A DNA stretch of 33,317 nucleotides, taken from positions 1 to 33,317 of the forward strand of contig CADBON010000170.1 in NCBI GenBank assembly GCA_902796315.1, written 5' to 3'. The stretch is from Oscillospiraceae bacterium (GTDB lineage Bacteria; Bacillota; Clostridia; Oscillospirales; Acutalibacteraceae). Under the pieces are notes generated by a model. The model saw nothing but the letters and a program-made list of their open reading frames with translations, was not told where the DNA came from and did not search any database. Of the stretch, positions 1,785-27,406 are shown in pieces. The number at the start of each line of letters is the position of its first letter. Positions within the stretch are counted from its first letter, which is position 1. Made by a program: the position numbers and the translations under genes.

Positions 1785-1809
1785 CAACGGCCCTGCGCCG
1801 TGCTACTAT
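1781..1809 (+). promoter_or_regulatory. Promoter candidate for the two membrane-protein genes
   Basis: TTGACA (1781-1786), a 17-nt spacer, then TACTAT (1804-1809) preceded by TGc (extended -10). It overlaps the stop of the phosphoesterase gene. Confidence 0.45.
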
Positions 1810-1841
1810 AAAAACAACTCGGTAATAAGGAGTGATTGCGA

Positions 1842-2648: not shown

Positions 2649-2663
2649 AGGAGGCGCGCAACG

Positions 2664-5665: not shown

Positions 5666-5684
5666 ATCTGTTCACCTGATTTCT

Positions 5685-7655: not shown

Positions 7656-7688
7656 ATAAGATAGTATATAAAGGAGTTGAAGTTCCCT

Positions 7689-12523: not shown

Positions 12524-13983
12524 AACCGTATCTCCACCCGGTGGTCGCCCGCCGGAGCGGTGATCTTCACAAGTTTTGCCCCGCCGTCGTACTCCGTCAC
12601 GGTTTCACAAACGCCGTCACAGAGTACCGCGGCGGGTTTGTGTATATAGACAAGGGTCTCGCCCTCACCGGCGGCGGTGTAATCGAGCGTAAACACGCCG
12701 TTCCCGCGGTCAAGGCCGTATTTGTTGAGCGTACCCGCGACCGCGACGGGCGCCGTTCGGCTCAGCATTTCCATCAGCCGCGCGTCCAGATCGTCGCCGT
12801 GGTAATCCCAATAGACCTGCCCCCACCGGTTCTCGTCGAAAAAGTCCAGCAGTTCATACGCGTGCGGGAACCACGACGTGTCGTTGTTGTCGCTGCAGCC
12901 GCCCCATTCGCCGATGATCATCGGCACACCCAGCCGCTTTTGCGCGTTGCCCTGTTCGGTAAAAAAGGCCTTGACGCGGTCGGCGTCGGCATAGCGGTAA
13001 AGGGGCGTGTCCACGGTCATATCATAGGCGTGCGGGCCATAGCACTGCAGCGGCTCGCGTTCGCCGTTGACGAGGATGGGCGGCACCGACTGGCGTGCGC
13101 CGCCATTGCACAGCGTGGTCTGCTCCATCATCAGGATCCCGTTCGGCGTCACCTCACGGATGGCCGCCGCCATTTTGTTGAGGAAGGGCCAGTAGTACAC
13201 CCGGTCAAATTCGGCGGAAAGGCCGTCCACCCTCTGCATAATATCGCGGATGGCGTTCCCCTTCACCGCGCCGAGCAGGGCGGGCACGTCGCGTTTGAGA
13301 AGCGCGGCGGCGATGGCCTTGCGGTTGATTTTGGGACTGGTAAAAACCTGCCCCGCGGCGCTGCGCACGAGCGCACGCACAAGTTTGGTGCCGAACGAAC
13401 CGGGGAAGGGCTCGTTCAGCAGATCAAAGCCGAACAGCGCGGGTCTGTCGCCGTAGCGGGCGGCCAGCATTTGCCACAGGTCGGCGAAACGGTCCTGCAG
13501 GCCCCTGCCCCACACGGGATCGTTGTGCCAAAAATGGTCAAAGGCGCTGTGTACCCATTTGCCGAAAACGTAGGCCTCTCCCCAAACGAATGTTGCGGGC
13601 TGCGGAACGTGCCCGTCGGTCAGCGTTGCCCACGAGGGCGCACCGTCGCCGCCGCCTACGCCGCCGTAGCCGGAGTACAGATCCTGATGCATATCCAGCA
13701 GGATGTATACGCCGTATTTCTCCGCAAGGGTAAAGATCTCGTCGATGGAGCGCAGATAACTCTCGTTATACTCCTCCAGATGCGGCTCCAGATTCGCCCA
13801 CGTCACCGCCAGGCGGATGAAGTTAAACCCGCGCGCGGCGTACTTTTGAAAGAACGCCTCGTCCAACGGGTAGCGAAACCGCTCGCACCCGATCAACTTG
13901 TCATCGATGTTCATACCGTTGAAAATGCGCACGCGGCCGCAATCGTCAACGAAATTCAGCCCTTCGGTCAAAATCTTATCCAT
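12520..13983 (-). CDS. Glycoside hydrolase family 5 enzyme, intracellular (487 aa)
   Basis: The GH5 acid/base motif is DLLNEPFPG. The nucleophile motif is MIIGEWGG. There is no signal peptide. The ATG at 13983 lies 5-6 nt after GGAGGT, which I prefer over the track start at 14007. Confidence 0.88.
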   Translation of the reverse strand: MDKILTEGLNFVDDCGRVRIFNGMNIDDKLIGCERFRYPLDEAFFQKYAARGFNFIRLAVTWANLEPHLEEYNESYLRSIDEIFTLAEKYGVYILLDMHQDLYSGYGGVGGGDGAPSWATLTDGHVPQPATFVWGEAYVFGKWVHSAFDHFWHNDPVWGRGLQDRFADLWQMLAARYGDRPALFGFDLLNEPFPGSFGTKLVRALVRSAAGQVFTSPKINRKAIAAALLKRDVPALLGAVKGNAIRDIMQRVDGLSAEFDRVYYWPFLNKMAAAIREVTPNGILMMEQTTLCNGGARQSVPPILVNGEREPLQCYGPHAYDMTVDTPLYRYADADRVKAFFTEQGNAQKRLGVPMIIGEWGGCSDNNDTSWFPHAYELLDFFDENRWGQVYWDYHGDDLDARLMEMLSRTAPVAVAGTLNKYGLDRGNGVFTLDYTAAGEGETLVYIHKPAAVLCDGVCETVTEYDGGAKLVKITAPAGDHRVEIRF

Positions 13984-14013
13984 AACGCACCTCCGTGTGT
14001 CTGCCATAGGATC

Positions 14014-14979
14014 CTATTCGCCGTAGGTCAGCGCGTCGGTATTTTCGGCGCTGTATTCCACCTGCTGTGACCAGCGGCGCACGCTTTCGCGCAGGTCGTC
14101 CGCCGTCAGCGCGCCGGTCTCGCGCAGTGTCGCGCCATCCCACAGCCGCAGGTACAGCACCGCCTCGACGCAAAAACGCATGACCTCGGCGTAGCGGCCG
14201 TCGAAAAAACCGCGCGAGAGGTGACGAAAGATCAGATAGGCGAATACCTTTTTATAATGGGCGTCATACGCCGGCCCGGGCAAGTGCGGACGTGCGGCGC
14301 TCACAAGGCGCGCGGCCTGCTGCTCCCACTCCCGGTCGATGGGCTCGGTCGCGGCGTAGCGGCGGGCGATCTCCTCAAAGGGGCGCGCCGCAAGCGGCTG
14401 TTCCAGCGACCAATCGGCGGTCATCACAACGGCCTTGCCCAGCGTATCGCGCAGCGAACGGCCGCCGTCGAAGATCTCGCGGAACAGGTCGGCGCGAAAG
14501 TCACAAAATTCGTCGTAAAAATCGGCGTCGTCCCGTTCGCGGTCCGTCAGGCCGTCGTCCGCGCCGTCATCCACGGTGACAAGCGTCAGACGGTCGCCGC
14601 TTTCCAGCAGACGGCAGACCTCTTCGCAGGCAAGGCCGAGCCCGCGCTCGGTGCGGCCGGGAAACTCGCGGTAAAACCGCGGGTGCTCGCGGCAAACGTC
14701 GCAGAGCGCGTCGTGCCCGAGCGCGCTGTAAATCTCGCAGAGGTTGTCCGCGTCCAAAAAGGGACAGCGCCCCTCCCCCGTCATGGCAAAACAGCGCGAA
14801 CCGTCGGGCGAAACGGTCATACAGCGGCGCATTTTTTCGCCGAGCGCACCCTCCAGCCCCTCGTAAAACGAGGCGGTGTCGGGGTCGACGTCCACCTCCC
14901 AGCCGAGGCAGCAGTTGTGCGCGCACGCCCCCGCTGTACAGCGGAACGCCTCGTAAAAATCGGGTTGAATGAACTTCAT
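14014..14979 (-). CDS. FliB-like (flagellin lysine-N-methylase family) Cys-rich CxxCxxCC-type protein (321 aa)
   Basis: The N-terminus FRCTAGACAHNCCLGWEVDVDPDT matches the FliB/YkgJ-type Cys pattern. A second Cys cluster is CPFLDADNLCEIY...CDVCREHPR. An ATGA overlap joins it to the trmO stop. The product assignment is from memory of the family pattern. Confidence 0.65.
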   Translation of the reverse strand: MKFIQPDFYEAFRCTAGACAHNCCLGWEVDVDPDTASFYEGLEGALGEKMRRCMTVSPDGSRCFAMTGEGRCPFLDADNLCEIYSALGHDALCDVCREHPRFYREFPGRTERGLGLACEEVCRLLESGDRLTLVTVDDGADDGLTDRERDDADFYDEFCDFRADLFREIFDGGRSLRDTLGKAVVMTADWSLEQPLAARPFEEIARRYAATEPIDREWEQQAARLVSAARPHLPGPAYDAHYKKVFAYLIFRHLSRGFFDGRYAEVMRFCVEAVLYLRLWDGATLRETGALTADDLRESVRRWSQQVEYSAENTDALTYGE

Positions 14980-15653
14980 TTCGTCACGTCCGTAACCGTC
15001 AGCACGTTTCCGCTGACGGTGAATTTTACGTCATAATCGCCAAAGCGCAGGCCGTACACCCGCTCCGGGTCGTCCTGGTACGAGGGGCGCGGGTCCAACG
15101 CCAGCGCCTCGCACAAAGGATTGCGCAGAGCTGCGGGCAGGCGGTTTTCCAAATCGACGGGAATGCGCACCGTCAGGCGGTCAAACGCGCGATCGTCGGT
15201 GAAGCCGCCCGTGGCGTCCTCCACCCGATCGGCGTAGGGCACGTAGGGTTTGACGTCGTAAATGGGCGTGCCGTCCACCAAATCGGCGCCGCCGACCACC
15301 AGTACCGTGCCGTCGGTCGCCGTCTCTTCGATCTTCAGCAGTTTTACGCACGAAAGGCCGATGGGATTGGGGCGGTTGGGCGAGCGCGTGGCAAACACGC
15401 CCAGCCGTTCGTTCCCGCCCAGGCGCGGCGGGCGCACGGTGGGCGACCACTTTTCCGGCCGCGGGTTTTCGGAAAACCCCCAGATCAGCCACAGGTGCGA
15501 AAAGCCCTCCAACCCCCGCAGGGCGTTGGGGTCGCGGTATTCCGGCGCAAAGACGACCTTCGCCGTCAGCGCCGGTGCAAGCCCGCTCTGCCGCGGCACG
15601 CCGAACTTGGTTTTGAAATCGCCGCGCAGTACGGCGATCGGTTCTATGGTCAT
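14976..15653 (-). CDS. trmO: tRNA (N6-threonylcarbamoyladenosine(37)-N6)-methyltransferase TrmO/YaeB family (225 aa)
   Basis: TsaA/YaeB-like segments are FGVPRQSG, FSHLWLIWGF, GVFATRSPNRPNPIGLS and GTPIYDVKPY. The internal ATG at 15653 has a GGAGGA RBS 6 nt upstream. The longer track ORF (to 16142) overlaps the upstream membrane gene and is Arg/Gly-rich junk. Confidence 0.9.
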   Translation of the reverse strand: MTIEPIAVLRGDFKTKFGVPRQSGLAPALTAKVVFAPEYRDPNALRGLEGFSHLWLIWGFSENPRPEKWSPTVRPPRLGGNERLGVFATRSPNRPNPIGLSCVKLLKIEETATDGTVLVVGGADLVDGTPIYDVKPYVPYADRVEDATGGFTDDRAFDRLTVRIPVDLENRLPAALRNPLCEALALDPRPSYQDDPERVYGLRFGDYDVKFTVSGNVLTVTDVTK

Positions 15654-16237
15654 ACCGTTTCCTCCGTTGGTTTCATTTGCTCGCTGCACCACACCGCCGC
15701 GGCCATCGCCGCCAGGCAAAGCACGTCCACGACCATCATCGCGACGTTCGGCTCGACGCACCGTGCGTTTTCGACAACCATCATCACCGTTACCGCAAAG
15801 AACGGCGCCAGCATACAGCCGTACAACAGCCGTTTGCCGCGGTTCCTGAGCCGCTTCGCGACGTAGCACCACAGCGCTGCCATCGCGCCGAGAGCGGTGT
15901 ACGCAAGTCCGTCGACGAGATCCGACAGGGCGTTGGTCGCGAACATTTCCGGGTCGTGCATCCGCACGGCCGCCACGGCACTGAACGCCGTCGTGTACCC
16001 GTAGTAGCCCAGGCACAATCCGGCGAAAAACAGCAGCACACCGCCGGCGATCGCCTTCGGCTCCGCCGTCTTGCGCAGAAGCAGAAGGACGATGATCAGC
16101 GGGTAAACGTCGAGATTGCCGCCGAGGACCGACAGGTTGCACATCCCCCTGCCGAGCGGCGTGGCGGTCAACTCCCCGAGCAGTTGTGCGGCAACGCCGA
16201 AAGCGACGCCGATCAGAAAAAAGCGAAGAATTTTCAT
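15650..16237 (-). CDS. Hypothetical multi-pass membrane protein (195 aa)
   Basis: There are about five hydrophobic helices. An ATGA overlap joins it to the trmO start. I chose the start MKILRFFLIG at 16237, and its RBS is weak. Confidence 0.7.
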   Translation of the reverse strand: MKILRFFLIGVAFGVAAQLLGELTATPLGRGMCNLSVLGGNLDVYPLIIVLLLLRKTAEPKAIAGGVLLFFAGLCLGYYGYTTAFSAVAAVRMHDPEMFATNALSDLVDGLAYTALGAMAALWCYVAKRLRNRGKRLLYGCMLAPFFAVTVMMVVENARCVEPNVAMMVVDVLCLAAMAAAVWCSEQMKPTEETV

Positions 16238-16250
16238 AGTCGTCTCGTTA

Positions 16251-16290
16251 AAGAAAACCGCGGGCCAAGGCAATCGCCTTAGCCCGCGTT
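16251..16290 (-). terminator. Rho-independent terminator of the hydrogenase operon
   Basis: On the minus strand the hairpin is CGCGGGCtAAGGC gatt GCCTTgGCCCGCG, followed by GTTTTCTTT. It begins about 83 nt after the hydA stop. Confidence 0.7.
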
Positions 16291-16372: not shown

Positions 16373-18142
16373 TTAATACTGTTTGCGTGCTTCGTAGTAA
16401 GTGTGCAGGATCTCGTGCGCCTTATGGCTGCCGGGTTCGCCGAAGAACTCGTCGTACACTCTGGTGATGTCCGGGTTCAGGTGGCTCTTGCGCACGGGCA
16501 GGTTTTCGTCGTCCTTATACAGACCGGCGGCACGCACGGCGCGAACGTCGGTGAAGTTGCGGACGGAAGCGGGCACGATGGGCTGGCCGCCGCCGTTGAC
16601 GCAGCCGCCCGGGCAGGCCATGACTTCGATGAAGTCATACTGCTTCTCGCCGCTCTTGACCATATCGAGCACCTTGCGGGCGTTGATCAGGCCGCTGGTA
16701 ACGCAGACGCGGATCGTAACGCCGTTGATGGTGAGCTCGGCTTCCTTAATCTCCTCGGTTCCGCGGATGGGCTTGAAGAGGTCGAAGTTCTCCAGCTCTT
16801 CGCCGGTAAGGGCGTGATAGGCGGTACGAAGGGCCGCTTCCATAACGCCGCCGGTCGCACCGAAGATGGTGCCGGCGCCGGAGCCGAGACCGAAGGGCGA
16901 GTCGAACTCATCGTCGGGGATGGCGGTGAAGTTGATGCCGGCTTTGCGGATCATACGCGCCAGCTCACGGGTCGTGAGCGAAGCGTCGATGTCGCGCAGG
17001 CCCTCGACGGCCGTCTTGTAATCGCTGCGCTCCGCCTCAAACTTCTTGGCGGTGCAGGGCATGACGGAAACGGAGAAGATCGACGCGGGATCCCAGCCCA
17101 TTTTCTCGGCATAGTAGGTCTTGGCGACAGCGCCGAACATACCCTGCGGAGATTTGCAGCTGGAAAGGTTCGGGATGAACTCGGGATAATAATGCTCGCA
17201 GAAATTGATCCAGCCGGGCGAGCAGGAGGTGATCAGCGGCAGTTTGCCGCCGTTTTTGAAGCGATCGAGGAACTCGGTGGCCTCTTCCATAATGGTCAGG
17301 TCGGCGCTGAAGTTGGTGTCAAACACGTTCTCAAAGCCAAGCATACGCAGAGCGCGGACCATTTTGCCGGTGACGATCGAGCCCATGGGCATACCGAACT
17401 CTTCACCAAGGCCGACGCGGACGGACGGAGCCGTCTGGACGATAACGTGAAGGTCGGGATTGTTGAGCGCCTCAAAGACCTTTTGGGTGTCGTCACGCTC
17501 GGACAGGGCGCCGGTCGGGCAGTAGTTGATGCACTGGCCGCAGTTGACACAGGCCACGTCGCCCAGGCCCCACTCAAAGGCGGACCCGATGTGGGTGTCG
17601 AAGCCGCGGGCGTTGGCACCGATCACAGAGCAGCCCTGCAGTTTTTCGCAGGCGGCCACACAGCGGCGGCAGAGAATGCACTTCTCGTTGTCGCGGTACA
17701 TATGCACGGCACTGCGGTCGATCTCATAGGGAACCGTGTCGCCGGCCATGGCGTTCTCGTCCTCAATGCCGTACTCGTTGCACAGTTTCTGCAGTTCGCA
17801 GCTGCCGTTGCGCACGCAGGCAAGGCACTCTTTTTTATGGGTGGAAAGAATCAGTTCCAGCGTCATTCTGCGGTTTTCACGGACCTTCGGGGAGTTGGTG
17901 AAAATCGCCATCCCGTCGTTGGCGGGGAACACGCAGGAGGCAACCATGTGCGCCGGACGGCCGGAATCGGGGGCCTCTTGGACCTCGACCAGGCAGATGC
18001 GGCAGGCGCCGATGGCGTTGATGTCTTTCAGATAGCACAGCGTCGGAATTTCAACACCGGCGGTATGGCAGGCCTCCAGAACGGTGCTGCCGGCCGGTAC
18101 TTCATATTCGAAACCGTTGATTTTAACGCGGATCGTATCCAT
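16373..18142 (-). CDS. hydA: [FeFe]-hydrogenase catalytic subunit, M3-type (589 aa)
   Basis: The N-terminus has 2Fe-2S ferredoxin-like Cys residues. A His-ligated cluster region (HKKECLACVRNGSC) follows. Two 4Fe-4S motifs are present (CILCRRCVAAC and CVNCGQCINYCP). The H-cluster motifs are TSCSPGW (P1 variant), MPCTAKKFE (P2) and EVMACPGGCVNGGGQP (P3). Confidence 0.95.
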   Translation of the reverse strand: MDTIRVKINGFEYEVPAGSTVLEACHTAGVEIPTLCYLKDINAIGACRICLVEVQEAPDSGRPAHMVASCVFPANDGMAIFTNSPKVRENRRMTLELILSTHKKECLACVRNGSCELQKLCNEYGIEDENAMAGDTVPYEIDRSAVHMYRDNEKCILCRRCVAACEKLQGCSVIGANARGFDTHIGSAFEWGLGDVACVNCGQCINYCPTGALSERDDTQKVFEALNNPDLHVIVQTAPSVRVGLGEEFGMPMGSIVTGKMVRALRMLGFENVFDTNFSADLTIMEEATEFLDRFKNGGKLPLITSCSPGWINFCEHYYPEFIPNLSSCKSPQGMFGAVAKTYYAEKMGWDPASIFSVSVMPCTAKKFEAERSDYKTAVEGLRDIDASLTTRELARMIRKAGINFTAIPDDEFDSPFGLGSGAGTIFGATGGVMEAALRTAYHALTGEELENFDLFKPIRGTEEIKEAELTINGVTIRVCVTSGLINARKVLDMVKSGEKQYDFIEVMACPGGCVNGGGQPIVPASVRNFTDVRAVRAAGLYKDDENLPVRKSHLNPDITRVYDEFFGEPGSHKAHEILHTYYEARKQY

Positions 18143-18154
18143 TTCTGCTCCTCC

Positions 18155-19954
18155 TTATTTCTTCGAGATCGCGTGGAACGCGCAGTTGTCGATGCACGTG
18201 CCGCACTTGATGCACTTCGTCTGGTCAATGACGTGGGGCTCTTTGACCGCGCCGGAGATGGCGTTGACCGGGCAGTTGCGGGCGCACTTGGTGCAGCCTT
18301 TGCAAAGCGCGGGATCGATCTCGAACCGGACAAGGTTCTTGCAGACGTGGGCGGGGCACTTTTTGTCCACAACGTGGGCAATGTACTCGTCCTTAAAGCG
18401 CTGGTAGGTGGACAGAACGGGGTTGGGAGCCGTCTGGCCCAGACCGCACAGGGAGTTCTCTTTGATGTAGTAGCAAAGTTTCTCCATACGGTCAAGGTCT
18501 TCCATCGTGCCGTTGCCGGAGGTGATCTTTTCGAGCAGTTCCAGCAGGCGGCGGGTACCGACGCGGCACGGCGTGCACTTGCCGCAGCTCTCGTCGACCG
18601 TGAATTTCAGGAAGAACTTGGCGATATCGACCATGCAGGTATCTTCGTCCATGACGATCAGTCCGCCGGAGCCCATCATGGCGCCCTTGCTTCTCAGGTT
18701 GTCATAGTCGATCGGTTCGTCCAGCAGTTCCGCGGGGAGGCAGCCGCCGGAGGGGCCGCCGGCCTGAGCCGCTTTGAACTTTTTGCCGTTCGGGCAGCCG
18801 CCGCCGATGTCGTAAATGACTTCGCGCAGAGTGGTGCCCATGGGGATCTCGACAAGGCCGGTGTTGTTGATCTTGCCGCCCAGAGCAAAGACCTTGGTGC
18901 CCTTGCTGCCCTCGGTGCCCATGCTGTTGAAGAACTCGGCGCCCTTCAGGATGATCTGGGGAATGTTCGCAAAGGTTTCGACGTTGTTTTCGGTGGTGGG
19001 TTTGCCGAACAGACCCTTGACCGCCGGGTACGGAGGACGCGGACGGGGTTCGCCGCGGTTGCCTTCGATGGAGGTCATCAGCGCGGTCTCTTCGCCGCAG
19101 ACGAAAGCGCCGGCGCCGAGACGGATGTGCAAGTCAAAATCAAAGCCGCTGCCGAAGATATCTTTACCGAGCAGGCCGTATTCACGGGCGTCCTTAATGG
19201 CCTTTTCCAAACGCTTGACGGCGATGGGGTACTCGGCGCGGACGTAAACGTAACCCTGGGTCGCGCCGGTGGCGTAACCGCAGATGGTCATGGCTTCCAC
19301 GATGCAGTGCGGGTCGCCTTCCAGCACGGAGCGGTCCATGAACGCGCCGGGGTCGCCTTCATCGGCGTTGCAGACGACATACTTCTGGTCCGCTTTGTTC
19401 GCCGCGGTGAAGCTCCACTTTTTGCCGGTGGGGAAACCGCCGCCGCCACGGCCGCGAAGGCCGGAATCGGACACGACCTTGATGACCTCTTCGGGCGTCA
19501 TTTCGGTAAGGGCCTTGCCGAGCGCGGCATAGCCGTCCATCGCGATGTATTCATCAATGCTTTCGGGGTTGATCACGCCGCAGTTGCGCAGCGCAACACG
19601 CTTCTGCTTCGCGTAGAAGGTGGTGTCGCTCAGCGAAACGTTGCCGTTTTCGACCGCCGCGTCCGCCGCGGCCTCGTCGTAAACGAGACGGCTGACAACT
19701 CTGCCCTTGAGAAGATGCTCTTCAACGATCTCTTTGACGTCGGCTTCCTTCACCTGACTGTAGAAAGTGCCGTCGGGATACACGATCACCACGGGACCGA
19801 GGGCACACAGGCCAAAGCAGCCCGTTTGAACGATCTTGACCTCTTCGCTCAAGTCGTTCTTGGCGATCTGATTCTCGAACTCGGCGATCAGCTTTGCGCT
19901 GCCGGAAGACGTGCAGCCGGTGCCTCCGCAGATCAGTACTTGCGCACGAACCAT
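18155..19954 (-). CDS. hydB: NuoF-like NAD(P)H-binding flavoprotein subunit of the bifurcating hydrogenase (599 aa)
   Basis: An N-terminal thioredoxin-like 2Fe-2S domain is present. The FMN site is GRGGGGFPTGKKW. The NADH site is NADEGDPGAFMDR. The N3 cluster motif is SCGKCTPCR. The C-terminus carries two 4Fe-4S motifs (CKGCTKCARNCP and CIKCGTCIDNC). Confidence 0.95.
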   Translation of the reverse strand: MVRAQVLICGGTGCTSSGSAKLIAEFENQIAKNDLSEEVKIVQTGCFGLCALGPVVIVYPDGTFYSQVKEADVKEIVEEHLLKGRVVSRLVYDEAAADAAVENGNVSLSDTTFYAKQKRVALRNCGVINPESIDEYIAMDGYAALGKALTEMTPEEVIKVVSDSGLRGRGGGGFPTGKKWSFTAANKADQKYVVCNADEGDPGAFMDRSVLEGDPHCIVEAMTICGYATGATQGYVYVRAEYPIAVKRLEKAIKDAREYGLLGKDIFGSGFDFDLHIRLGAGAFVCGEETALMTSIEGNRGEPRPRPPYPAVKGLFGKPTTENNVETFANIPQIILKGAEFFNSMGTEGSKGTKVFALGGKINNTGLVEIPMGTTLREVIYDIGGGCPNGKKFKAAQAGGPSGGCLPAELLDEPIDYDNLRSKGAMMGSGGLIVMDEDTCMVDIAKFFLKFTVDESCGKCTPCRVGTRRLLELLEKITSGNGTMEDLDRMEKLCYYIKENSLCGLGQTAPNPVLSTYQRFKDEYIAHVVDKKCPAHVCKNLVRFEIDPALCKGCTKCARNCPVNAISGAVKEPHVIDQTKCIKCGTCIDNCAFHAISKK

Positions 19955-19974: not shown

Positions 19975-20340
19975 TTAGATATCCTTAATCACGTAATCCG
20001 TGATGACCTTGCCGCCCTTGAGATGCTTCTCAACAACTTCTTTGGCCTTTTCGGGCGTCATCTTAACGTAGGTCACCTTTTCTTTGCCGGCCTCGAAAAC
20101 CTCTACGACGGGCTCGAACTGGCAGATGCCGATGCAGCCGGTCTGGGTAACGGTCACCTTATCGGACAGACCTTCCCGGTTGACCTCTTCCACGAAAGCG
20201 TTCAGCACCGGACGGGCGCCCGCTGCGATGCCGCAGGTGGCCATACCGACCACGACGCGGATGTCGCCGCTGCCTTCGCGCAGAACGACTTTGTTCTGCA
20301 TTCTCTCTCTGATTGCCGCAAGTTCCTCTAAAGATTTCAT
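19975..20340 (-). CDS. Thioredoxin-like (2Fe-2S) ferredoxin-domain protein (121 aa), HydD-like
   Basis: The motifs GMATCGIAAGA ... TGCIGICQFEPVV are typical of this domain. The gene lies directly upstream of hydB. Confidence 0.85.
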   Translation of the reverse strand: MKSLEELAAIRERMQNKVVLREGSGDIRVVVGMATCGIAAGARPVLNAFVEEVNREGLSDKVTVTQTGCIGICQFEPVVEVFEAGKEKVTYVKMTPEKAKEVVEKHLKGGKVITDYVIKDI

Positions 20341-20375: not shown

Positions 20376-20948
20376 TTATATAGAAGGGCAGGGGTTTCCG
20401 TTTGCCCCGTCATACTGTTCTTTGAGATAGTCCGCGATCCAGGCGACCACCTCCGGGTGAGAGAGCGGTACGCCCCCGAGCGCTTCTTTCAACTCATCGG
20501 TATCCAAACGCACCTCGCCGCCGGGCAGCGTGTGGGTAAAGACCCAGCGGATCTCCGGCGCGCCCTGGATGAGCACCGTCAGCGTGGAGATCACGTCGCC
20601 CAAAGGCGTATAATCGATGCTCGTCTTGTAAAACAGCGCGGATGTCGTTGTTCCGTGGTCGGTCGGGAAGTTTTCGCTGTCGCGCGAGACGATGGAAAAC
20701 TCACCGCCCGTCTGCTCGCACGCCAATTTGAACAGCGGGATGCCGAGCCCCACGTTGCGCGTGGTACGCGTGGTGGTGAACGGATCGGTGACCGCGGCGA
20801 GGAAATCGGGTTTCATCCCGCAGCCGTCGTCCGAAATGCTGACAAAGAGCGTTTCCGTCGTTTCCTTCAGTTCGATGCGAACGGTTTCCGCGCCGGCTTT
20901 GACCGAATTCTGCGCAATATCCAGAATATTCAGTGATATCTCTTTCAT
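20376..20948 (-). CDS. GHKL/histidine-kinase-like ATPase-domain protein without a DHp/phosphoacceptor domain (190 aa)
   Basis: The N-box is NILDIAQNSVKAGA, the G1 box is DDGCGM and the G2 box is GLGIPL. There is no upstream dimerisation/His domain. An ATGA overlap joins it to the PHP gene stop. Confidence 0.8.
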   Translation of the reverse strand: MKEISLNILDIAQNSVKAGAETVRIELKETTETLFVSISDDGCGMKPDFLAAVTDPFTTTRTTRNVGLGIPLFKLACEQTGGEFSIVSRDSENFPTDHGTTTSALFYKTSIDYTPLGDVISTLTVLIQGAPEIRWVFTHTLPGGEVRLDTDELKEALGGVPLSHPEVVAWIADYLKEQYDGANGNPCPSI

Positions 20949-21682
20949 ACGGCCCTCCCGAGAAGGTCGAAGAGCGCCTTGACAACGCCCTCTTCGTCCG
21001 AGGGTTCCGCGTCCAACTCAAGGAACGCGCTTTTATCCCGAATGCTCCAAAGATTGTGCGCGTCGGAGGAAACGAGGATGCGTTTGCTTTGCAGAGCCGG
21101 ATAGCGTTCACGGTAGGAAGCGATCTTTTCCGCGTCGGCCAGTTCCGCGTTGAGAAAGCCCGGCTCCGGCGGGAAATCGCCCAGCACGGCGATCGCGCCG
21201 TTGGCCTCCCGGTCCACGTGCGCCGGGTAGCACACGCCGCCGAACCGTGCGACCGCTTCGGGCACTTCCCCGATCATCAGCGACGTTGCCGCCGGCAGGT
21301 AATCCGCCAGTTTTCCGACAAGCTCGTCATTCTCGTCAAGGATCAGCTGTGAACCGAAGATCCGCTCGTTGTTCGGAACGTGCATCCTGCGCGCGTCCAC
21401 AAACGCATCAAAGTCAGCCGCCGCCTGCGGCGAGGGAAAAAGGCAGACCACGTGGATATCCTCCGCCGTGGTGAGTTCCATCCCGCAGATGGGGATCAGC
21501 CCGTTCCGGCGCGCCGCTTGGGCGAAGGCCAAGCCGTTTTTGCAGCTGTTGTGATCCGTGAGCGCCACGATCTGCAGCCCCGCCAAAAGCGCCATACCGG
21601 CGATATTATTCGGCGTCATATCGTCCTCAGCGCAGGGCGACAGACAGGAATGAATGTGAAAATCGTAATAGAACCTGTTCAT
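20945..21682 (-). CDS. PHP-domain (polymerase/histidinol phosphatase-like) phosphoesterase (245 aa)
   Basis: The motifs DFHIHSCLSPCA, ALTDHN and SSDAH are present. The start at 21682 forms an ATGA overlap with the stop of the upstream DRTGG gene, which I prefer over the track start at 21733. Confidence 0.85.
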   Translation of the reverse strand: MNRFYYDFHIHSCLSPCAEDDMTPNNIAGMALLAGLQIVALTDHNSCKNGLAFAQAARRNGLIPICGMELTTAEDIHVVCLFPSPQAAADFDAFVDARRMHVPNNERIFGSQLILDENDELVGKLADYLPAATSLMIGEVPEAVARFGGVCYPAHVDREANGAIAVLGDFPPEPGFLNAELADAEKIASYRERYPALQSKRILVSSDAHNLWSIRDKSAFLELDAEPSDEEGVVKALFDLLGRAV

Positions 21683-22005
21683 ACGGCCGGCCCGAGCAGC
21701 GCCGCAAGCCGAAAGGCGGAAAGGTCCGAACAAAGAACGTTTACGCTTTTTTCTTCCGCCGTGCGGACAAGCTCCTCATCAAGGGTAACGCCCTCCGCGA
21801 GCAAGACCGTACTCACGTCCGAGAGGGACGCCACGGCCACGGTGTTCACGTTGCTCATAATCGTGATCCACACCTGGTCCGCCTGCGCGCGACCCATGAC
21901 CCAGCTGAGCAGGTCGCCCACGTATCCGCCGCTGACCGTTCTGTCCGGCTGCGGCATGGCGACGACGCCAAAGCCAAAGGTTTCCTGCAATTCGCGCACG
22001 GTCAT
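21679..22005 (-). CDS. DRTGG-domain protein (108 aa), second copy
   Basis: GYVGDLLSWVM ... WITIMSNVNTVAVASL ... VLLAEG resembles the DRTGG fold and the paralog at 23780-24127. The start at 22005 forms an ATGA overlap with the stop of the HydS-like gene. The track ORF reaching 22458 overlaps that gene. Confidence 0.75.
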   Translation of the reverse strand: MTVRELQETFGFGVVAMPQPDRTVSGGYVGDLLSWVMGRAQADQVWITIMSNVNTVAVASLSDVSTVLLAEGVTLDEELVRTAEEKSVNVLCSDLSAFRLAALLGPAV

Positions 22006-23276
22006 TCTTGCTTGGCCTCCCCGTTCTGTTTTTTCTGTTCCAGCACCAGGCAGGTACGCTCCTTCCCGGCTACGCCGCGAACGACGTCCTCGGCGTACGC
22101 GCGGCAGGTGGGTGAACCGCACGCGCCGCAATCGATGCCCGGAAGCGTCTGACACAAAGACTGTATCTCCGCCATCATGCGCATGGATTCGCCGATATTT
22201 GCGCTCAGGCGAGAGATCGGCGTGTAGGTGGGCAGACTGTCGGAAATGTATTCCGGCGGGATGAAGTTCTGATCCGCCGGCAGGAAATTCTTTGAAACGG
22301 GCAGATAGCGGCGTACCGACTGCAGGCGGGTCTTGGCGATAAACGGATTTTCGATCGTCATCACGCCGCCCACACAACCGCCGATACAGGCGTCGAGTTC
22401 CACGAACTCGATCTGCGGAATGTTGCCGTTTTCGATGGATTCCAACACCTGCATACAATTCTCAATGCCGTCGGCAAAGAGGTAATTGTCGTTGAGGATC
22501 GCCGTGGATTCTCCGCCGGAGGACGCCCAGCCAATCCCGATCATTCCCGCCTCGCTCGTAACGGACGGGGAAACGGATCGCTTCATGGCGCCGATCAACT
22601 GAAAATAAATATCGTTGAGCGCGACCACCACGTCGATATGGCTCTTATAATCGCCGAACCCGTTGCGGATGTAACTGACCTTTGCCGCGCAGGGGGAGAT
22701 GAAAAACACCGCAATATCCTCTTCCGACAGTTCGGGGTGCTGCTGCTGCGCCTGTTTTTTCGCCTCGATGGCGGCAATCTCCATCGGCGGGAGGATCGGC
22801 AGAATGTTATCTTTCAGATACGGGAACCGCAGAGAGATCAGTCGGGTGATCACGGGGCAGGCGGACGAGATCACGGGTTTTTTGATACCCTCGGCTTTGA
22901 GATAGATCCGCGTATAAGCGGAAACGAGCTCCGCGGCCTTCGCCACTTCATAGACCTCGTCGAAGCCGATGCTCAAAAGGCCCTGCAGAACGTCGTCGAC
23001 GTCTTCCAGATCGTTGAACTGGCCGTACAGAGAGGGCGCAGGCAGCGCGATCTTCCATTTATAATGCATATAATGCTCCAACTTGGAGCACATCGCTTTT
23101 TTCGCGTTGTGCTGGCAGACACGGATGCATTCGCCGCAGTCGATACAGCGGTCGGTGTTGATCTCGGCGTGACCGTCCAGGATGCGGATCGCTTCCGTCG
23201 GGCAGCGCCGAACACAGGTGGTGCAGCCGGTGCATTTTTCTACGTCCAGCACCACGGAGTGCATGTAAGAATTCAC
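22002..23276 (-). CDS. HydS-like putative sensory [FeFe]-hydrogenase homolog (424 aa): 2x[4Fe-4S] ferredoxin, compact H-domain, C-terminal 4-Cys Fe-S motif, no PAS domain
   Basis: The ferredoxin motifs are CTGCTTCVRRCP and CIDCGECIRVC. The P1-like motif is SSACP, with Ala in place of the proton-relay Cys. The P2-like motif is SPCAAKVS. The P3-like motif is ELDACIGGCVGG. The C-terminal Fe-S motif is C-x7-CGACGSPTC. Confidence 0.88.
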   Translation of the reverse strand: MNSYMHSVVLDVEKCTGCTTCVRRCPTEAIRILDGHAEINTDRCIDCGECIRVCQHNAKKAMCSKLEHYMHYKWKIALPAPSLYGQFNDLEDVDDVLQGLLSIGFDEVYEVAKAAELVSAYTRIYLKAEGIKKPVISSACPVITRLISLRFPYLKDNILPILPPMEIAAIEAKKQAQQQHPELSEEDIAVFFISPCAAKVSYIRNGFGDYKSHIDVVVALNDIYFQLIGAMKRSVSPSVTSEAGMIGIGWASSGGESTAILNDNYLFADGIENCMQVLESIENGNIPQIEFVELDACIGGCVGGVMTIENPFIAKTRLQSVRRYLPVSKNFLPADQNFIPPEYISDSLPTYTPISRLSANIGESMRMMAEIQSLCQTLPGIDCGACGSPTCRAYAEDVVRGVAGKERTCLVLEQKKQNGEAKQE

Positions 23277-23285
23277 AACATCACC

Positions 23286-23714
23286 CTACTGATTGATATA
23301 CACGGTCATCGTGATGGTCGTGCCCTCCCCGACGACGGAATCGATGCTCATTTCGTCGGTATACCGCTTCATGTTCGGCAGACCCATGCCCGCGCCGAAA
23401 CCCAGCGAACGCACGGAGTCCGTTGCGGTGGAGTAGCCCTCCTGCATCGCGAGCTCCACGTCCGCGATCCCGGGGCCGTGGTCGACCAGACGGATCACGA
23501 CCTTGTCCTCATATACCTCCACGTCGGCAGCACCGCCGCCGGCGTGAATGACCATATTGATCTCGCCCTCGTACATGGCGATGGAAAGTCTGCGGATGGT
23601 ATCGGGCGGAAGCCCGAGCCGCCGCAGCATCTTTTTGAGTTCAACCGACGCCTGACCGGCGGAAACGAAATTTTCGCCGTCGACGTCGTAATGAAAATTC
23701 AGAGATTCACTCAT
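23286..23714 (-). CDS. RsbW/SpoIIAB-like small GHKL ATPase (anti-sigma-type Ser/Thr kinase fold, 142 aa)
   Basis: The N-box is EGEINMVIHA, the G1 box is DHGPGI and the G2 box is GFGAGMGLPN. It is a single-domain protein. It ends 9 nt before the start of the HydS-like gene. Confidence 0.8.
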   Translation of the reverse strand: MSESLNFHYDVDGENFVSAGQASVELKKMLRRLGLPPDTIRRLSIAMYEGEINMVIHAGGGAADVEVYEDKVVIRLVDHGPGIADVELAMQEGYSTATDSVRSLGFGAGMGLPNMKRYTDEMSIDSVVGEGTTITMTVYINQ

Positions 23715-23779: not shown

Positions 23780-24127
23780 TCAGACCTTGGCGCCGTTGAG
23801 ACCGTTCGTGTATAGCGTGCCGCAGGCCTCATACATACGTTTTGCGCAAGCAAGCAGCACGATGCCGCTTTCTTTCGCAATCTCGATCATTTCGGGCGTG
23901 GGCCGTTTGGAACGGACGAAAACGACACAGACCATGTCCATCATTTCCGCCGTACGGATCACCTGCGAATTCACAAGCCCGGTCAGCAGAACGGCCTGAT
24001 CCTTCACATAGGCCAGCACGTCGCTCATCATATCGCTGCCGCAGGCCGCGTGTACGTCCCGATCGAGCAGTTCTTCTCCGCAGAGAACGTCCGCCTCCAG
24101 CAGATCCCGGATTTTACTGATTTTCAT
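23780..24127 (-). CDS. DRTGG-domain protein (115 aa), first copy
   Basis: SDMMSDVLAYV ... AVLLTGLVNSQVIRTAEMMDMVCVVFVRSKRP ... GIVLL fits the DRTGG-domain pattern. The gene starts 32 nt after hydC. Confidence 0.8.
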   Translation of the reverse strand: MKISKIRDLLEADVLCGEELLDRDVHAACGSDMMSDVLAYVKDQAVLLTGLVNSQVIRTAEMMDMVCVVFVRSKRPTPEMIEIAKESGIVLLACAKRMYEACGTLYTNGLNGAKV

Positions 24128-24159: not shown

Positions 24160-24654
24160 TTACGCGTACTGCGCCAGAATACCGGGAACGTCGTCGGGGG
24201 TCACTTTGCCGTACACTTCGCCGTTGATGGTGAAGACGGGCGCAAGACCGCAGGCGCCGACACAACGGCAGGCCTCGATGGAGAATTTGCCGTCCGAGGT
24301 GCATTCACCCTCGTCAATGCCGAGTTCTTCTTTGATCTTGTCAAGCACCTGCTGCGAGCCTTTGACGTAGCAAGCGGTGCCCAGGCAGACCGAGATCGCG
24401 TACTTGCCTTTCGGGGAAAGAGCAAACTGTGCATAGAACGTCGCCACGCCGTAGACTTTCTCCAGCGGGACGTCAAGCCCTTCGGCGATGCGAACCTGCA
24501 CCTCGCGGGGAAGGTAGCCGTAAATATCCTGCGCCACCTGCATGACGTGCATCAACTGGCTCTTGTCGCCGTTCACTTCGGCGATGGCTTCCTTGAGTTT
24601 GGCCGCCTGTTCTGCAGTCTCCTTAAAAGGAATGCTGCTGATTTTTTTGACCAT
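24160..24654 (-). CDS. hydC: NuoE-like [2Fe-2S] subunit of the bifurcating hydrogenase (164 aa)
   Basis: The motifs CLGTACYVKG ... CRCVGACGLAP are the NuoE 2Fe-2S Cys pattern. The ATG at 24654 lies 7 nt after GGAGGA, which I prefer over the track start at 24708. Confidence 0.92.
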   Translation of the reverse strand: MVKKISSIPFKETAEQAAKLKEAIAEVNGDKSQLMHVMQVAQDIYGYLPREVQVRIAEGLDVPLEKVYGVATFYAQFALSPKGKYAISVCLGTACYVKGSQQVLDKIKEELGIDEGECTSDGKFSIEACRCVGACGLAPVFTINGEVYGKVTPDDVPGILAQYA

Positions 24655-24724
24655 TCGGAGTTCCTCCTGTTCGTATTTTTTCGCGAAGGCCGCGTTTCGC
24701 CCTCGCATTCATTACCAAGTATGT

Positions 24725-24753
24725 ATTATACCATTTATACCTTTTAATGTCTA
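24725..24753 (-). promoter_or_regulatory. Promoter candidate for the hydrogenase operon
   Basis: On the minus strand: TAGACA (24753-24748), a 17-nt spacer, then TATAAT (24730-24725) preceded by TGg (extended -10). It lies about 70 nt upstream of the hydC ATG. Confidence 0.55.
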
Positions 24754-24949: not shown

Positions 24950-27406
24950 TCACGCACCGACGGTGATCGTCTGCGCGGTGAACGGGCTTCTGTTGGAGCC
25001 GCTGTTAGCGCGGACGGTGTAATAATAGGTAGCGCCGGGAGTGACGTCGGCGTCAAGGACCGACAGTTCGGCGTCCGCCGACAGCACTTCGAGAGTGGAC
25101 CAGGCGTCCGAGGCGTTCGCCTTTTTATAGACGGTGTAAGAGGTAGCGCCTTCGACCGCGGTCCAATCAATGCTGACGCCGTCGGCCGTATTGGTCAGAT
25201 CAAACGTCGGGGCCGCCAGGAAGTAGGAACGCGGAATGCTGCTCAAGCCGCTCCAGGTCTTTTTGGTGGCATTGTACGCACGTACGCAGTACTCATAGCA
25301 AGCGCCCTGTTTCAAACCGCTGGCGTCACTGTACGTTCTTTTTGTGGTGGTGGTCAGCGCTTTCCATGCGACCAGCACTTTGCCGGAAGCATCGACCTGG
25401 CGACGGAACACTCTGTACTGCGAAGCACCCTTTACAGCGCCCCATGTGACCTTAAAGCCCTTATTGATCTGTGCCATTTTGACAGCGCCGGGCGCCGCCA
25501 CATAGTTGATGCTCTTGGCAGTGTATGCGCTCTTGGTTCCGATCGCCGTGTAGGCGCAGACGGTGTAATAATACAGCTTGCCGTTCGCGGCAGTGGTATC
25601 GGTATAACTCAACTTGGTCACGGTCTTGAGCTTCGTCCAGGAATCGGTGGGTTTCAGACGGCGGTACACGTTGTACTTGGTAGCGCCGGTGATCTTGTTC
25701 CACGAAACGAGCACGCCGCTCGTCGCGTTAGCAAGTTTCACGGTCGGGGTCGCCAGGAAGTAGGCGGCGTTCGTCTTCAAGCCGCTCCACGCTTTTCCGG
25801 TCGCGTTATACGCTCTGACGCAGTATTGATAGCGCTTGCCGGTCTTCAGACCGCTGGCGTCGGAATACGAAAGGTTTTTGGTGGTGGTCAGCGTTTTCCA
25901 GCCGGTCAGGGCCTTGCCGGCGGCGTCCAGTTCGCGGCGGAACACGCGGTACTGCGAAGCGCCCTTGACGGTCGTCCACGTGACCTTAAAGCCCTTGGCG
26001 ACCTGCTGCAGCTTCACGGAAGAGGGCGTCGCTACGAAGAATACCGACTTCGAGGTGAACCAGCTGCTGGTGGTATCGGAGTAGGCGCGAACCGTATAAT
26101 AGTTGGTTTTCCCGTTCGCTGCACCTGTGTCGACGTAGGAGGCGGCGGCAGTAGCCGAAACGGTCTTCAAAACTTTCCAGGAATCGGTGGTCTTCATACG
26201 GCGGTACACAATGAACTTGGTCGCGCCGGCGGACTTCGTCCAGGTGACGATCACGCCCTTTTCACCGTTGGCAAGCTTAACAGTCGGATTGACGATATAG
26301 GTCTTAGCGGCAGTAGCGCTGTAAGCACTGAAAGTGCCGGCCGTTTTGTCGCTGGTGTTGTTATCATAATACGTAAAGACCGTGTATTCGTAATTCTTGC
26401 CGGAAACCAGGTCTTTGCTCGTGTCGCTGAAGGTGCGGACGCTGGCACTGGCCGTGTCGCCGAGTTTGGTCCAGCCGGTGGCGGGATCGCCGTTCGCATC
26501 CAGTTGACGGCGGAAGACACGGTACAGCGTCGCTTTGCTGACCGCGTTCCAGGTCACCTTAATGCCGCCGGTGATGGGAGCCAGGTTGATCGTCGTGGGG
26601 GCGGCAACGTACATGGTGGAAACCCCGGCAGCGTTGTAGCCGGCGGAAAGGCCGCTGGCATTGATCGCACGAACCGTATAATCATACGAGGTGCCCTGCG
26701 TGACGGATTTATCGGTATACACCTGTTTGGTGCCGGAAGCAGGCGTGACATCAAAGGTCGTAGAGCCGGCCCAGCTCGAGGCGCCCGCCGCTCTGCGATA
26801 TACGCGGTAAGAATCGGCGCCCTTGACGGCATTCCACGTCACGGCGATGCCGCCGTCCGCGTTCTTGGCGCTGACGAGTTGGACATCACTGAGTGTAACG
26901 ACCGACTTGGTGCCGATCTGGGTCTTGGTATCGCCGCCGCCGTACAGGTTGCTCTCGGTAAGCAGCAGCTGGTTGCAGTAAGCCTTGACCGTGGTCTTGG
27001 GCCGTGCGTTGCCGATCACCTTGAATGTGGCGTAAAAGACCTGCGTGGACTTGGTCACGGAAACGGCCTTGGAGCCGGTAAACGACAACGCATAAAGGTT
27101 GTCGGATCCGCTCACGGCGCCGTGCGCTTCCACGCCGAAATTCGCGGCGGCGGAGCTCAAGCCGGCCTTGCTGTCCTGCGGCTGCAGAACGGCGGGGTCA
27201 TACTCCAGCCAAATCACCGCGCCGAACAGTTTTTTGCTCGCGTTAAGATTGACGCTGAACGTAATCTCATCGTTCACACTGTTCGTCGACGTGAACGTAA
27301 AATAGTCTGCCGGGTTCACATCGGCGGCGTCCGCAGCAACGGAGAAGCAGACGACGCAGGTGAGGACCATCAGAAGGCAGAGGACAGATGAAATCGCTCT
27401 TTTCAT
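24950..27406 (-). CDS. Secreted protein: signal peptide, cohesin-like N-terminal domain, then seven Fn3-like modules (818 aa)
   Basis: The signal peptide is MKRAISSVLCLLMVLTCVVCFSVAADA. The cohesin-like segment is ITFSVNLNASKKLFGAVIWLEYDPAVLQP. Seven modules of 85-104 aa each carry W-x2-V-x-GA-x2-Y-x-V(Y/F)(R/K)(R/K) and YxYxVRA motifs. I see no LPXTG, SLH or dockerin. Confidence 0.88.
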   Translation of the reverse strand: MKRAISSVLCLLMVLTCVVCFSVAADAADVNPADYFTFTSTNSVNDEITFSVNLNASKKLFGAVIWLEYDPAVLQPQDSKAGLSSAAANFGVEAHGAVSGSDNLYALSFTGSKAVSVTKSTQVFYATFKVIGNARPKTTVKAYCNQLLLTESNLYGGGDTKTQIGTKSVVTLSDVQLVSAKNADGGIAVTWNAVKGADSYRVYRRAAGASSWAGSTTFDVTPASGTKQVYTDKSVTQGTSYDYTVRAINASGLSAGYNAAGVSTMYVAAPTTINLAPITGGIKVTWNAVSKATLYRVFRRQLDANGDPATGWTKLGDTASASVRTFSDTSKDLVSGKNYEYTVFTYYDNNTSDKTAGTFSAYSATAAKTYIVNPTVKLANGEKGVIVTWTKSAGATKFIVYRRMKTTDSWKVLKTVSATAAASYVDTGAANGKTNYYTVRAYSDTTSSWFTSKSVFFVATPSSVKLQQVAKGFKVTWTTVKGASQYRVFRRELDAAGKALTGWKTLTTTKNLSYSDASGLKTGKRYQYCVRAYNATGKAWSGLKTNAAYFLATPTVKLANATSGVLVSWNKITGATKYNVYRRLKPTDSWTKLKTVTKLSYTDTTAANGKLYYYTVCAYTAIGTKSAYTAKSINYVAAPGAVKMAQINKGFKVTWGAVKGASQYRVFRRQVDASGKVLVAWKALTTTTKRTYSDASGLKQGACYEYCVRAYNATKKTWSGLSSIPRSYFLAAPTFDLTNTADGVSIDWTAVEGATSYTVYKKANASDAWSTLEVLSADAELSVLDADVTPGATYYYTVRANSGSNRSPFTAQTITVGA
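24953..26884 (-). repeat. Array of seven tandem Fn3-like coding modules, including an imperfect ~530-nt two-module duplication (R3-R4 versus R5-R6, 25208-26284)
   Basis: I set module boundaries by counting: aa 175-270, 271-374, 375-461, 462-554, 555-639, 640-733 and 734-818. R3/R5 begin TVKLAN... and R4/R6 contain KGFKVTW..VKGASQYRVFRR. DNA near 25380-25470 and 25910-26000 is visibly similar. Confidence 0.8.

Follow-up and report, generated by a model that had tools for sequence, protein, structure and literature searches.

A probable Group D (M2e) [FeFe] hydrogenase without a PAS domain and its conserved gene neighbourhood in an Oscillospiraceae bacterium

The hydS gene and the architecture of its product

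The window analysed here is a stretch of 33,317 nucleotides (nt), positions 1 to 33,317 of contig CADBON010000170.1 (assembly GCA_902796315.1) of an Oscillospiraceae bacterium. On its minus strand, an open reading frame (ORF) with a GTG start at 22002..23276, named here as hydS, encodes a protein of 424 amino acids (aa) and lies among genes for a bifurcating [FeFe] hydrogenase, HydABC. The product, HydS, was found to have the features of the Group D (M2e) putative sensory [FeFe] hydrogenases, for which the model enzyme is TamHydS (Tam-HydA, WP_013150113) of Thermoanaerobacter mathranii. The plus-strand frame of the same interval was rejected because it is riddled with stop codons. An alternative start at the ATG of codon 5 was also rejected, since the homologues begin with MNYYKHSV or MTKYKHSV, in register with the MNSYMHSV that follows from the GTG start. 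Three regions of HydS were recognized by Pfam, all encoded on the minus strand:

23103..23255, minus strand: two ferredoxin-type [4Fe-4S] motifs (aa 8-58; two Fer4 matches and Fer4_10)
22365..23051, minus strand: compact H-domain (aa 76-304; Fe_hyd_lg_C, E 6e-28)
22050..22145, minus strand: C-terminal PF04060-type [4Fe-4S] site (aa 378-409; FeS at 378-404, E 1.6e-11)

The N-terminal region contains two CxxCxxCxxxCP motifs at residues 15-26 (C15, C18, C21 and C25) and 44-55 (C44, C47, C50 and C54). The H-domain contains the P1-type motif SSACP at 137-141 (A139, C140), the P2-type motif SPCAAK at 194-199 (S194, C196) and the P3-type motif ACIGGCVGG at 296-304 (C297, C301). The original prediction, made from the letters of the window, had named both ferredoxin-type motifs and the P1 to P3 motifs, and every residue named in it was found in place, with the N-terminal cysteines falling within the Fer4 matches. 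When HydS was aligned to the solved [FeFe] hydrogenases with HMMER, SSACP fell on TSCCP, ISPCAAK on IMPCIAK and ACIGGCVGG on ACVGGCIGG. Because these motifs align with those of the hydrogenases in the Protein Data Bank (PDB), C140, C196, C297 and C301 of HydS could be equated with the H-cluster ligands C300, C355, C499 and C503 of Clostridium pasteurianum hydrogenase CpI, and the claim that all the H-cluster cysteines are kept was thereby borne out. The proton-relay cysteine (CpI C299), predicted to be absent, is replaced by alanine (A139). The same replacement had been named as a hallmark of TmHydS from Thermotoga maritima, and it is indeed on record as A131 in TmHydS and A137 in TamHydS (PMC10407848).

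The C-terminal motif of HydS reads D382-C383-x2-C386-x4-C391-x17-C409, and the chain ends 15 residues past C409. The cysteine set proposed earlier for this region was right for C383, C386 and C391 and wrong for its first member. C375 was rejected as a cluster ligand because its alignment column is not conserved and is occupied mostly by L, Y, E, R or T, whereas the true fourth cysteine, C409, had been missed.

No PAS, GAF, kinase or phosphatase domain was detected in HydS by Pfam at E values up to 0.01. The AlphaFold2 model built from a 58-sequence alignment has a mean predicted local distance difference test score of 89.4 and a predicted template modelling score of 0.88. Beyond residue 322 this model shows an extended linker or coil and three helices around the Cys loop, and in the modelled structure there is neither space nor a fold for a PAS domain in this part of the protein. 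The absence of a PAS or other output domain, as predicted, is thus supported by both the Pfam search and the model. A Foldseek comparison of the model with the PDB returned [FeFe] hydrogenases for all of the best 50 matches. By sequence, the best [FeFe] hydrogenase chain in the PDB was 9rkm (E 2.7e-14), with 8zqd (CbA5H) close behind, and neither the sequence search nor Foldseek with HydS returned a structure of Group C or Group D.

Size and conservation of the HydS family

Public data hold a protein identical to HydS as well as 8000 or more homologues of the same domain composition, and because of these the architecture is far beyond what chance could produce. The 120 closest homologues are 407-434 aa long. 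When 1.84 billion cluster representatives were searched exhaustively with HMMER, 399 clusters were obtained at E ≤ 1e-30, and at least 555 matches were obtained in species-representative genomes. The 150 nearest cluster representatives are mostly of about 410-460 aa, save truncated fragments and fusions. When the 30 longest of these, which are the likeliest to carry an extra domain, were scanned, a PAS domain was found in none of the 30. Judged from these sequences, the family is very large and the missing PAS domain of HydS is not unusual within it. Among the matches listed, the closest named genomes were metagenome-assembled genomes (MAGs) of rumen and gut Clostridia (Acutalibacteraceae, Ruminococcaceae, Oscillospiraceae), with identity up to 81%.

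The conservation of individual residues was assessed in an alignment of 125 sequences comprising HydS of the window, TamHydS and 123 representatives of clusters at 50% identity. The H-cluster cysteines are conserved in 122-124 of these relatives and the N-terminal ferredoxin cysteines in 109-125. Position 139 in P1 is variable (Ala in 45 sequences, Ser in 26, Phe in 15 and Thr in 12), with Cys outside the six commonest residues; the complete SSACP motif is present in 119 of the 120 closest homologues. The P2 motif starts with [ST]-P-C in 108/125, and the position of CpI M353 is occupied by Thr (58) or Ser (50). The residues of a putative proton path are widely shared (E256 in 95 sequences, E293 in 114 and D269 in 88). 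At the C-terminus, C383, C386 and C391 are conserved in 118-120 relatives, and the fourth cysteine (C404 in TamHydS, C409 here) in 120. The spacer before this last cysteine is x17 in 58 and the canonical x16 in 56 of the 120 closest homologues.

Public names in the family, those of P0022 and many others, are uninformative or wrong, with '4Fe-4S binding protein' (NCBI) given to many homologues and 'RnfB' (JGI) to one. In a scan of HydS against NCBIfam, no curated model scored above its cut-off, so that no name could be taken from this source. HydS could then be viewed as an Fe-S protein for electron transfer, similar to RnfB or Narf, which has lost the ability to bind [2Fe] and whose hydrogenase motifs are relics. 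The database names, the occurrence of PF04060 together with Fer4 in RnfB and the failure of every NCBIfam hydrogenase model to reach its cut-off agree with such a view. However, a Fe_hyd_lg_C domain of 229 residues lies between the Fe-S domains of HydS, the four H-cluster cysteines and P1-P3 are nearly invariant across the family, and the structural matches are all to hydrogenases. The domain order of RnfB, in which PF04060 comes first and is followed by the ferredoxin, is reversed in HydS with the H-domain inserted; none of the NCBIfam RnfB models comes near its cut-off, and the operon is of the hyd and not the rnf type. Furthermore, the orthologue TamHydS incorporates [2Fe]adt and spontaneously forms a spectroscopically normal H-cluster (PMC8163306). 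An electron-transfer protein of this kind is therefore very improbable and essentially excluded, and the entries carrying the names '4Fe-4S binding protein' and 'RnfB' could be corrected.

Assignment of HydS to Group D

The M2e or Group D hydrogenases have been described as proteins with two N-terminal [4Fe-4S] clusters, an H-domain and a C-terminal Cx2Cx4Cx16C motif, and no PAS domain; they have lost C299 and the Group A proton pathway, have M353 changed to Ser or Thr, and share their operon with the genes of a Group A hydrogenase and of an adjoining histidine-kinase-like ATPase (PMC8163306). In TamHydS, A137 stands at the position of C299, a path of E252, E289, S249 and D265 is exclusive to Group D, and the activity is low; conservation of the E252/D265-type path does not extend to Group C (PMC10407848). 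The C-terminal cluster of TamHydS includes C379 and C404, with D378, E392 and D393 conserved (PMC13104023).

For comparison, the TamHydS sequence was taken from the supplement of PMC6984386 as machine-read text, which gave 434 aa against the stated 435 aa. This text contains errors ('CPTAIRVRDGGK' for CPTEAIRVRDGK and 'ANSNGGE' for ANSGGE), and its residue numbers are off by one in places. The published numbering was restored with the help of P0271, a clean 435-aa Thermoanaerobacter-type homologue that is 97% identical to the machine-read sequence. HydS showed 48% identity and 66% similarity to TamHydS over 418 residues (E 1e-132), as against 22% identity (E 1e-7) to the Group A HydA of the same window. 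The functional positions of the two proteins correspond as follows:

TamHydS A137 = HydS A139, the position of CpI C299
TamHydS Ser at the M353 position = HydS S194
TamHydS S249, E252, D265 and E289 = HydS S253, E256, D269 and E293, putative proton path
TamHydS D378-C379, C382, C387 and C404 = HydS D382-C383, C386, C391 and C409, C-terminal cluster
TamHydS E392 and D393 = HydS E396 and D397, reported as conserved (PMC13104023)

Both proteins have the same domain order, with two [4Fe-4S] motifs, a compact H-domain and a C-terminal [4Fe-4S] site, and both are without PAS. VISSACP and FFISPCAAKV are identical between them, P3 reads ACIGGCxGG in both with Val here for Ile, and the same ten genes surround hydS in the two hosts. 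On the other hand, HydS has 424 aa where TamHydS has 435, its C-terminal helix is shorter, R32 of TamHydS corresponds to L33, and the variable CpI M497 position is Asp (D295) here and Leu in TamHydS. The hydC gene heads the operon here but follows the PHP gene in Thermoanaerobacter, and the host here is an uncultured, mesophilic gut or rumen member of Oscillospirales with about 59% GC, whereas the host of TamHydS is a thermophile.

Because architecture, marker residues and operon setting match the published class point by point, HydS was assigned to Group D (M2e) as an orthologue of TamHydS; on the sequence evidence this assignment is very nearly certain, the separation from Group C being drawn from the published description of the groups. 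The original prediction had contrasted HydS with HydS-type proteins that carry PAS; the lack of PAS holds, but its unusualness had been overstated, as PAS-less HydS proteins form the established M2e or Group D class (PMC8163306, PMC13104023). By its sequence HydS is one more uncharacterised orthologue in a class already described. The new member comes from a lineage of gut and rumen fibre-degrading Clostridia, and the finding as such adds little that is new.

TmHydS and the HfsB/HydS proteins of Thermoanaerobacterium and Ruminococcus albus are Group C (M2f) sensory hydrogenases, and hfsB encodes a PAS-containing protein of this group. Group C resembles HydS in the N-terminal clusters, the Ala at the C299 position, the loss of the Group A proton path, the C-terminal four-Cys cluster and the location near Group A hydrogenase genes with a presumed regulatory role (PMC8163306, PMC10407848). 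Its proteins differ in their PAS domain at the C-terminus, which often has a kinase or phosphatase as partner; HydS lacks this defining feature, no PAS domain following its Fe-S motif. In TmHydS, M353 is replaced by Gly and M497 by Ser (PMC8163306), where HydS has Ser and Asp.

The features shared by Groups C and D, namely the N-terminal clusters, the Ala and the C-terminal Fe-S motif (PMC8163306), could also be accounted for if HydS were a Group C protein that lost its PAS domain by truncation, frameshift or assembly error. The stop codon of hydS shares bases with the start codon of the conserved gene that follows, and no remnant of a PAS-coding region was found downstream of hydS, where the gene is DRTGG-like. 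The lengths of the 120 closest homologues and of the 150 nearest representatives, and the scan of the 30 longest representatives described above, also speak against such a loss. So does the presence of E256 and D269, which are exclusive to Group D, together with Ser in place of M353. Truncation of a Group C protein is thus essentially excluded, with practically complete confidence.

The comparison with Group A, represented by CpI and by HydA of the window, showed the same H-domain fold, the four Cys ligands and a ferredoxin-like N-terminal domain. HydS departs from this group in lacking the proton-relay cysteine and in having residues other than Met at the equivalents of M353 and M497 (S194 and D295). 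Its H-domain is shorter by about 58 residues (229 against 287 matched to the same Pfam model), Fe_hyd_SSU is absent, and an extra Fe-S domain is present at the C-terminus. HydS therefore falls outside Group A, having SSACP and not TSCCP, no Met at CpI 353 and 497, and no small-subunit-like C-terminus.

TamHydS shows slow turnover, high H2 affinity, CO tolerance and stabilised reduced states of the H-cluster (PMC8163306, PMC10407848). By homology, HydS would be expected to carry a normal H-cluster and to combine slow H2 turnover and high H2 affinity with stabilised reduced states.

A ten-gene cluster around hydS

Ten closely packed genes, all on the minus strand, make up the cluster, and hydS is in fourth place among them. 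The features of this region in the order of transcription are given below:

24725..24753, minus strand: promoter-like site TAGACA-17-TATAAT with TG (11/12 consensus matches, the best in the region; a consensus match only)
24160..24708, minus strand: hydC, NuoE-like [2Fe-2S] subunit of bifurcating hydrogenase (Pfam 2Fe-2S_thioredx, E 2.9e-51; NCBIfam NuoE/HoxE-like)
23780..24127, minus strand: DRTGG protein 1, 115 aa (Pfam DRTGG, E 4.9e-6; weak Hpr_kinase_N match)
23286..23714, minus strand: RsbW/SpoIIAB-like GHKL serine-kinase-type protein, 142 aa (Pfam HATPase_c_2, E 7.5e-13)
22002..23276, minus strand: hydS, probable Group D (M2e) putative sensory [FeFe] hydrogenase, 424 aa
21679..22005, minus strand: DRTGG-like protein 2, 108 aa (orthologues of 108-111 aa; weak DRTGG match in the related loci L001 and L005)
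20945..21682, minus strand: PHP-domain metal-dependent phosphoesterase, 245 aa, candidate phosphatase (Pfam PHP, E 1.9e-8)
20376..20948, minus strand: stand-alone GHKL ATPase, 190 aa (Pfam HATPase_c, E 9.3e-13)
19975..20340, minus strand: small thioredoxin-like [2Fe-2S] ferredoxin, HydD-like, 121 aa (Pfam 2Fe-2S_thioredx; NCBIfam fdxn_Clost-like)
18155..19954, minus strand: hydB, NuoF-like FMN/NADH subunit, 599 aa (Pfam Complex1_51K and NADH_4Fe-4S; NCBIfam nuoF_fam)
16373..18142, minus strand: hydA, catalytic Group A [FeFe] hydrogenase, 589 aa (Pfam Fe_hyd_lg_C, E 5e-102, and Fe_hyd_SSU)
16259..16288, minus strand: intrinsic-terminator-like hairpin after hydA (13-bp stem with 10 G-C pairs, T-rich tail)

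The RsbW-like gene ends 9 nt ahead of hydS, the ATG of DRTGG-like protein 2 overlaps the hydS stop codon (ATGA), and the PHP gene overlaps each of its neighbours by 4 nt. Because start and stop codons overlap and a single promoter-like and a single terminator-like site bracket the ten genes, these genes appear to form one operon, in which hydS would be co-transcribed with the bifurcating HydABC and five small signalling-type proteins.

Some gene boundaries needed revision. The PHP gene probably starts at 21682 (245 aa) and not at 21733, a 245-aa orthologue being called in a related locus (L004). The true start of hydC is probably downstream of the listed ATG, which gives a 182-aa ORF, because only 17 nt separate that ATG from the end of the promoter-like -10 element upstream, and because the orthologues are of 160-164 aa. 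The gene of DRTGG-like protein 2 is nested inside a longer TTG ORF of the mechanical ORF list.

HydA scored 871 bits against the NCBIfam model FeFe_hydrog_A6 (NADH-dependent [FeFe] hydrogenase, group A6; cut-off 765), and its best PDB match was HydA1 of Acetobacterium woodii (E 2e-197). Maturase genes hydEFG were absent among the window ORFs scanned. The closest NCBIfam models of the RsbW-like protein were SpoIIAB and RsbW, both below their cut-offs, and its closest solved structures were also SpoIIAB and RsbW. For the stand-alone GHKL ATPase, the closest solved structures were histidine-kinase catalytic domains, and sequences resembling the N, G1 and G2 ATP-binding boxes were recognized by eye. 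The PDB sequence searches with the PHP, GHKL and RsbW-like neighbours gave only generic family matches.

In HydA, P1 reads TSCSPGW (residues ~305-311), which puts Ser where CpI has the [4Fe-4S]H ligand C300. A regular-expression search of six-frame translations found TSCSP in all 49 related loci (L005-L086) in which a P1-type motif was detected, including those of Thermoanaerobacter. TSCSP is also present in the solved A. woodii HydA1 (7q4v), whereas T. kivui HydA1 and CpI have TSCCP. The sole mention of this variant found in the literature was for the hydrogenases of Melainabacteria, in a 2013 paper.

Gene order and fusions in the relatives

The neighbourhood of hydS was compared across 86 fetched loci, 31 of which had enough flanking sequence to judge the gene content. 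All ten genes were present in 31/31 of the judged loci, and 29 had the order of the window. The ten genes also flank the orthologue in Thermoanaerobacter, where only hydC is elsewhere, and in gut and rumen MAGs of Oscillospirales; hydC heads the operon in the window and in the Oscillospirales loci.

Fusions of HydS with the products of its neighbours were found in 8 of the 30 longest among the 150 nearest representatives. DRTGG precedes HydS in P0145 and P0205 and follows it at the C-terminus in P0140, P0147, P0198, P0235 and P0246, while P0169 carries an RsbW-like kinase (HATPase_c_2) at the N-terminus of HydS. In this way, some relatives have one of three of the five signalling-type neighbours joined to HydS. 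The fusions occur in independent lineages, and several were found again in separate assemblies, including MCB6993385.1 ('bacterium 210820-DFI.6.37') and a 347-kb contig, and are therefore real genes and not assembly artefacts. The fusions point to a physical association of HydS with its operon neighbours. The suggestion in the original prediction that any signal would have to pass to separate neighbouring proteins was strengthened by these results, as the neighbours are kept in every judged locus and some are fused to HydS in relatives. No open-access literature linking DRTGG domains with hydrogenases was found.

The chief competing possibility is that HydS is a slow catalytic or accessory redox subunit working with HydABC, as an additional H2/H+ site or an electron entry, with the GHKL, DRTGG and PHP proteins serving assembly or some other process. 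The location of hydS inside the hydCBA operon and not in a separate regulatory unit, its translational coupling to the neighbours and the absence of a DNA-binding output protein from the operon are consistent with it. However, the activity of TamHydS is reported to be only about 0.1 μmol H2 per mg per min (PMC10407848), and the Group A proton pathway is wholly absent in HydS. The tight association and the fusions are with kinase-type and DRTGG domains and not with HydA, HydB or HydC. The purified bifurcating HydABC(D) complexes, including those with solved structures, are not known to contain a HydS-like subunit. An accessory subunit is thus unlikely, although it is the main rival to a regulatory role.

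A possible route of H2 signalling

As a whole, a Group D HydS regulating HydABC through its neighbours is probably the correct explanation, though with considerable room for doubt, and that HydS acts as an H2 sensor through these particular neighbours is slightly better than an even call. In the proposed mechanism, H2 binding or oxidation at the H-cluster would shift the redox state and conformation of HydS, and this change would be sensed by the DRTGG proteins and the RsbW/SpoIIAB-like kinase, whose genes are tightly linked to hydS. The PHP phosphoesterase could be the counter-acting phosphatase, as protein phosphatases occur in the PHP family. As a result, HydABC of the same operon would be tuned in its activity or level to the surrounding H2 pressure. 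With no DNA-binding protein encoded in the operon, the output appears most likely to be post-translational or a partner-switching step.

The arrangement resembles the RsbW/SpoIIAB partner-switching systems in having a HATPase_c_2 kinase-type protein of about 140 aa beside small single-domain proteins and a phosphoesterase gene. It differs from them in that no STAS antagonist, PP2C phosphatase or sigma factor is present here, and DRTGG proteins and a PHP enzyme are found instead. We tentatively propose, as a possibility that we hold with less than even confidence, that Group D HydS does without PAS because its signalling uses dedicated, undescribed partners (two DRTGG proteins, the RsbW/SpoIIAB-like kinase, the PHP protein and a second GHKL protein) in a partner-switching-like phospho-relay acting post-translationally on HydABC.

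Several observations weigh against a regulatory Group D HydS. E122 and K126 of TamHydS, which are remnants of the Group A proton path, are replaced by I124 and A128 in HydS, and the C-terminal spacer is x17 and not x16. The operon encodes neither a transcription factor nor a sigma factor or STAS protein that would define an output, and the sensory role is merely 'putative' even for TamHydS. H2 triggers secondary-structure changes in TamHydS, yet its C-terminal cluster is not reduced by H2 (PMC13104023); the obvious redox-relay version of the signalling is unlikely.

Even so, the conserved ten-gene operon provides concrete candidates for the signalling route of a PAS-less HydS, and the HydS-DRTGG and kinase-HydS fusions back these candidates. 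The composition of this partner module and the fusions go slightly beyond the searchable open literature. How the bifurcating hydrogenases of rumen and gut Oscillospirales are controlled in their H2 production has a bearing on the fluxes of hydrogen and methane.

Other features of the window

At 3998-6662 (minus strand) and 7677-8522 (plus strand), the window encodes a Jag/KhpB and YidC pair and an Mrp/NUBPL-type Fe-S carrier ATPase; genes for Jag/KhpB and YidC usually lie near the replication origin. At 1806-3179 and between 8.4 and 12.5 kb there are several long ORFs, and for these the minus-strand translations were without a Pfam match. A homologue of the TrmO tRNA methyltransferase is encoded at 14976-16142 on the minus strand; it is extended at the N-terminus by about 180 residues, for which Pfam gave no match. 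The minus strand also encodes a GH5 cellulase (12520-14007) and a protein of 818 aa in which cohesin, GH85_C and fibronectin-III domains are combined (24950-27406). The cohesin protein and the cellulase suggest a fibre-degrading organism, which may form cellulosome-like assemblies, and this fits with the rumen and gut MAGs found as relatives.

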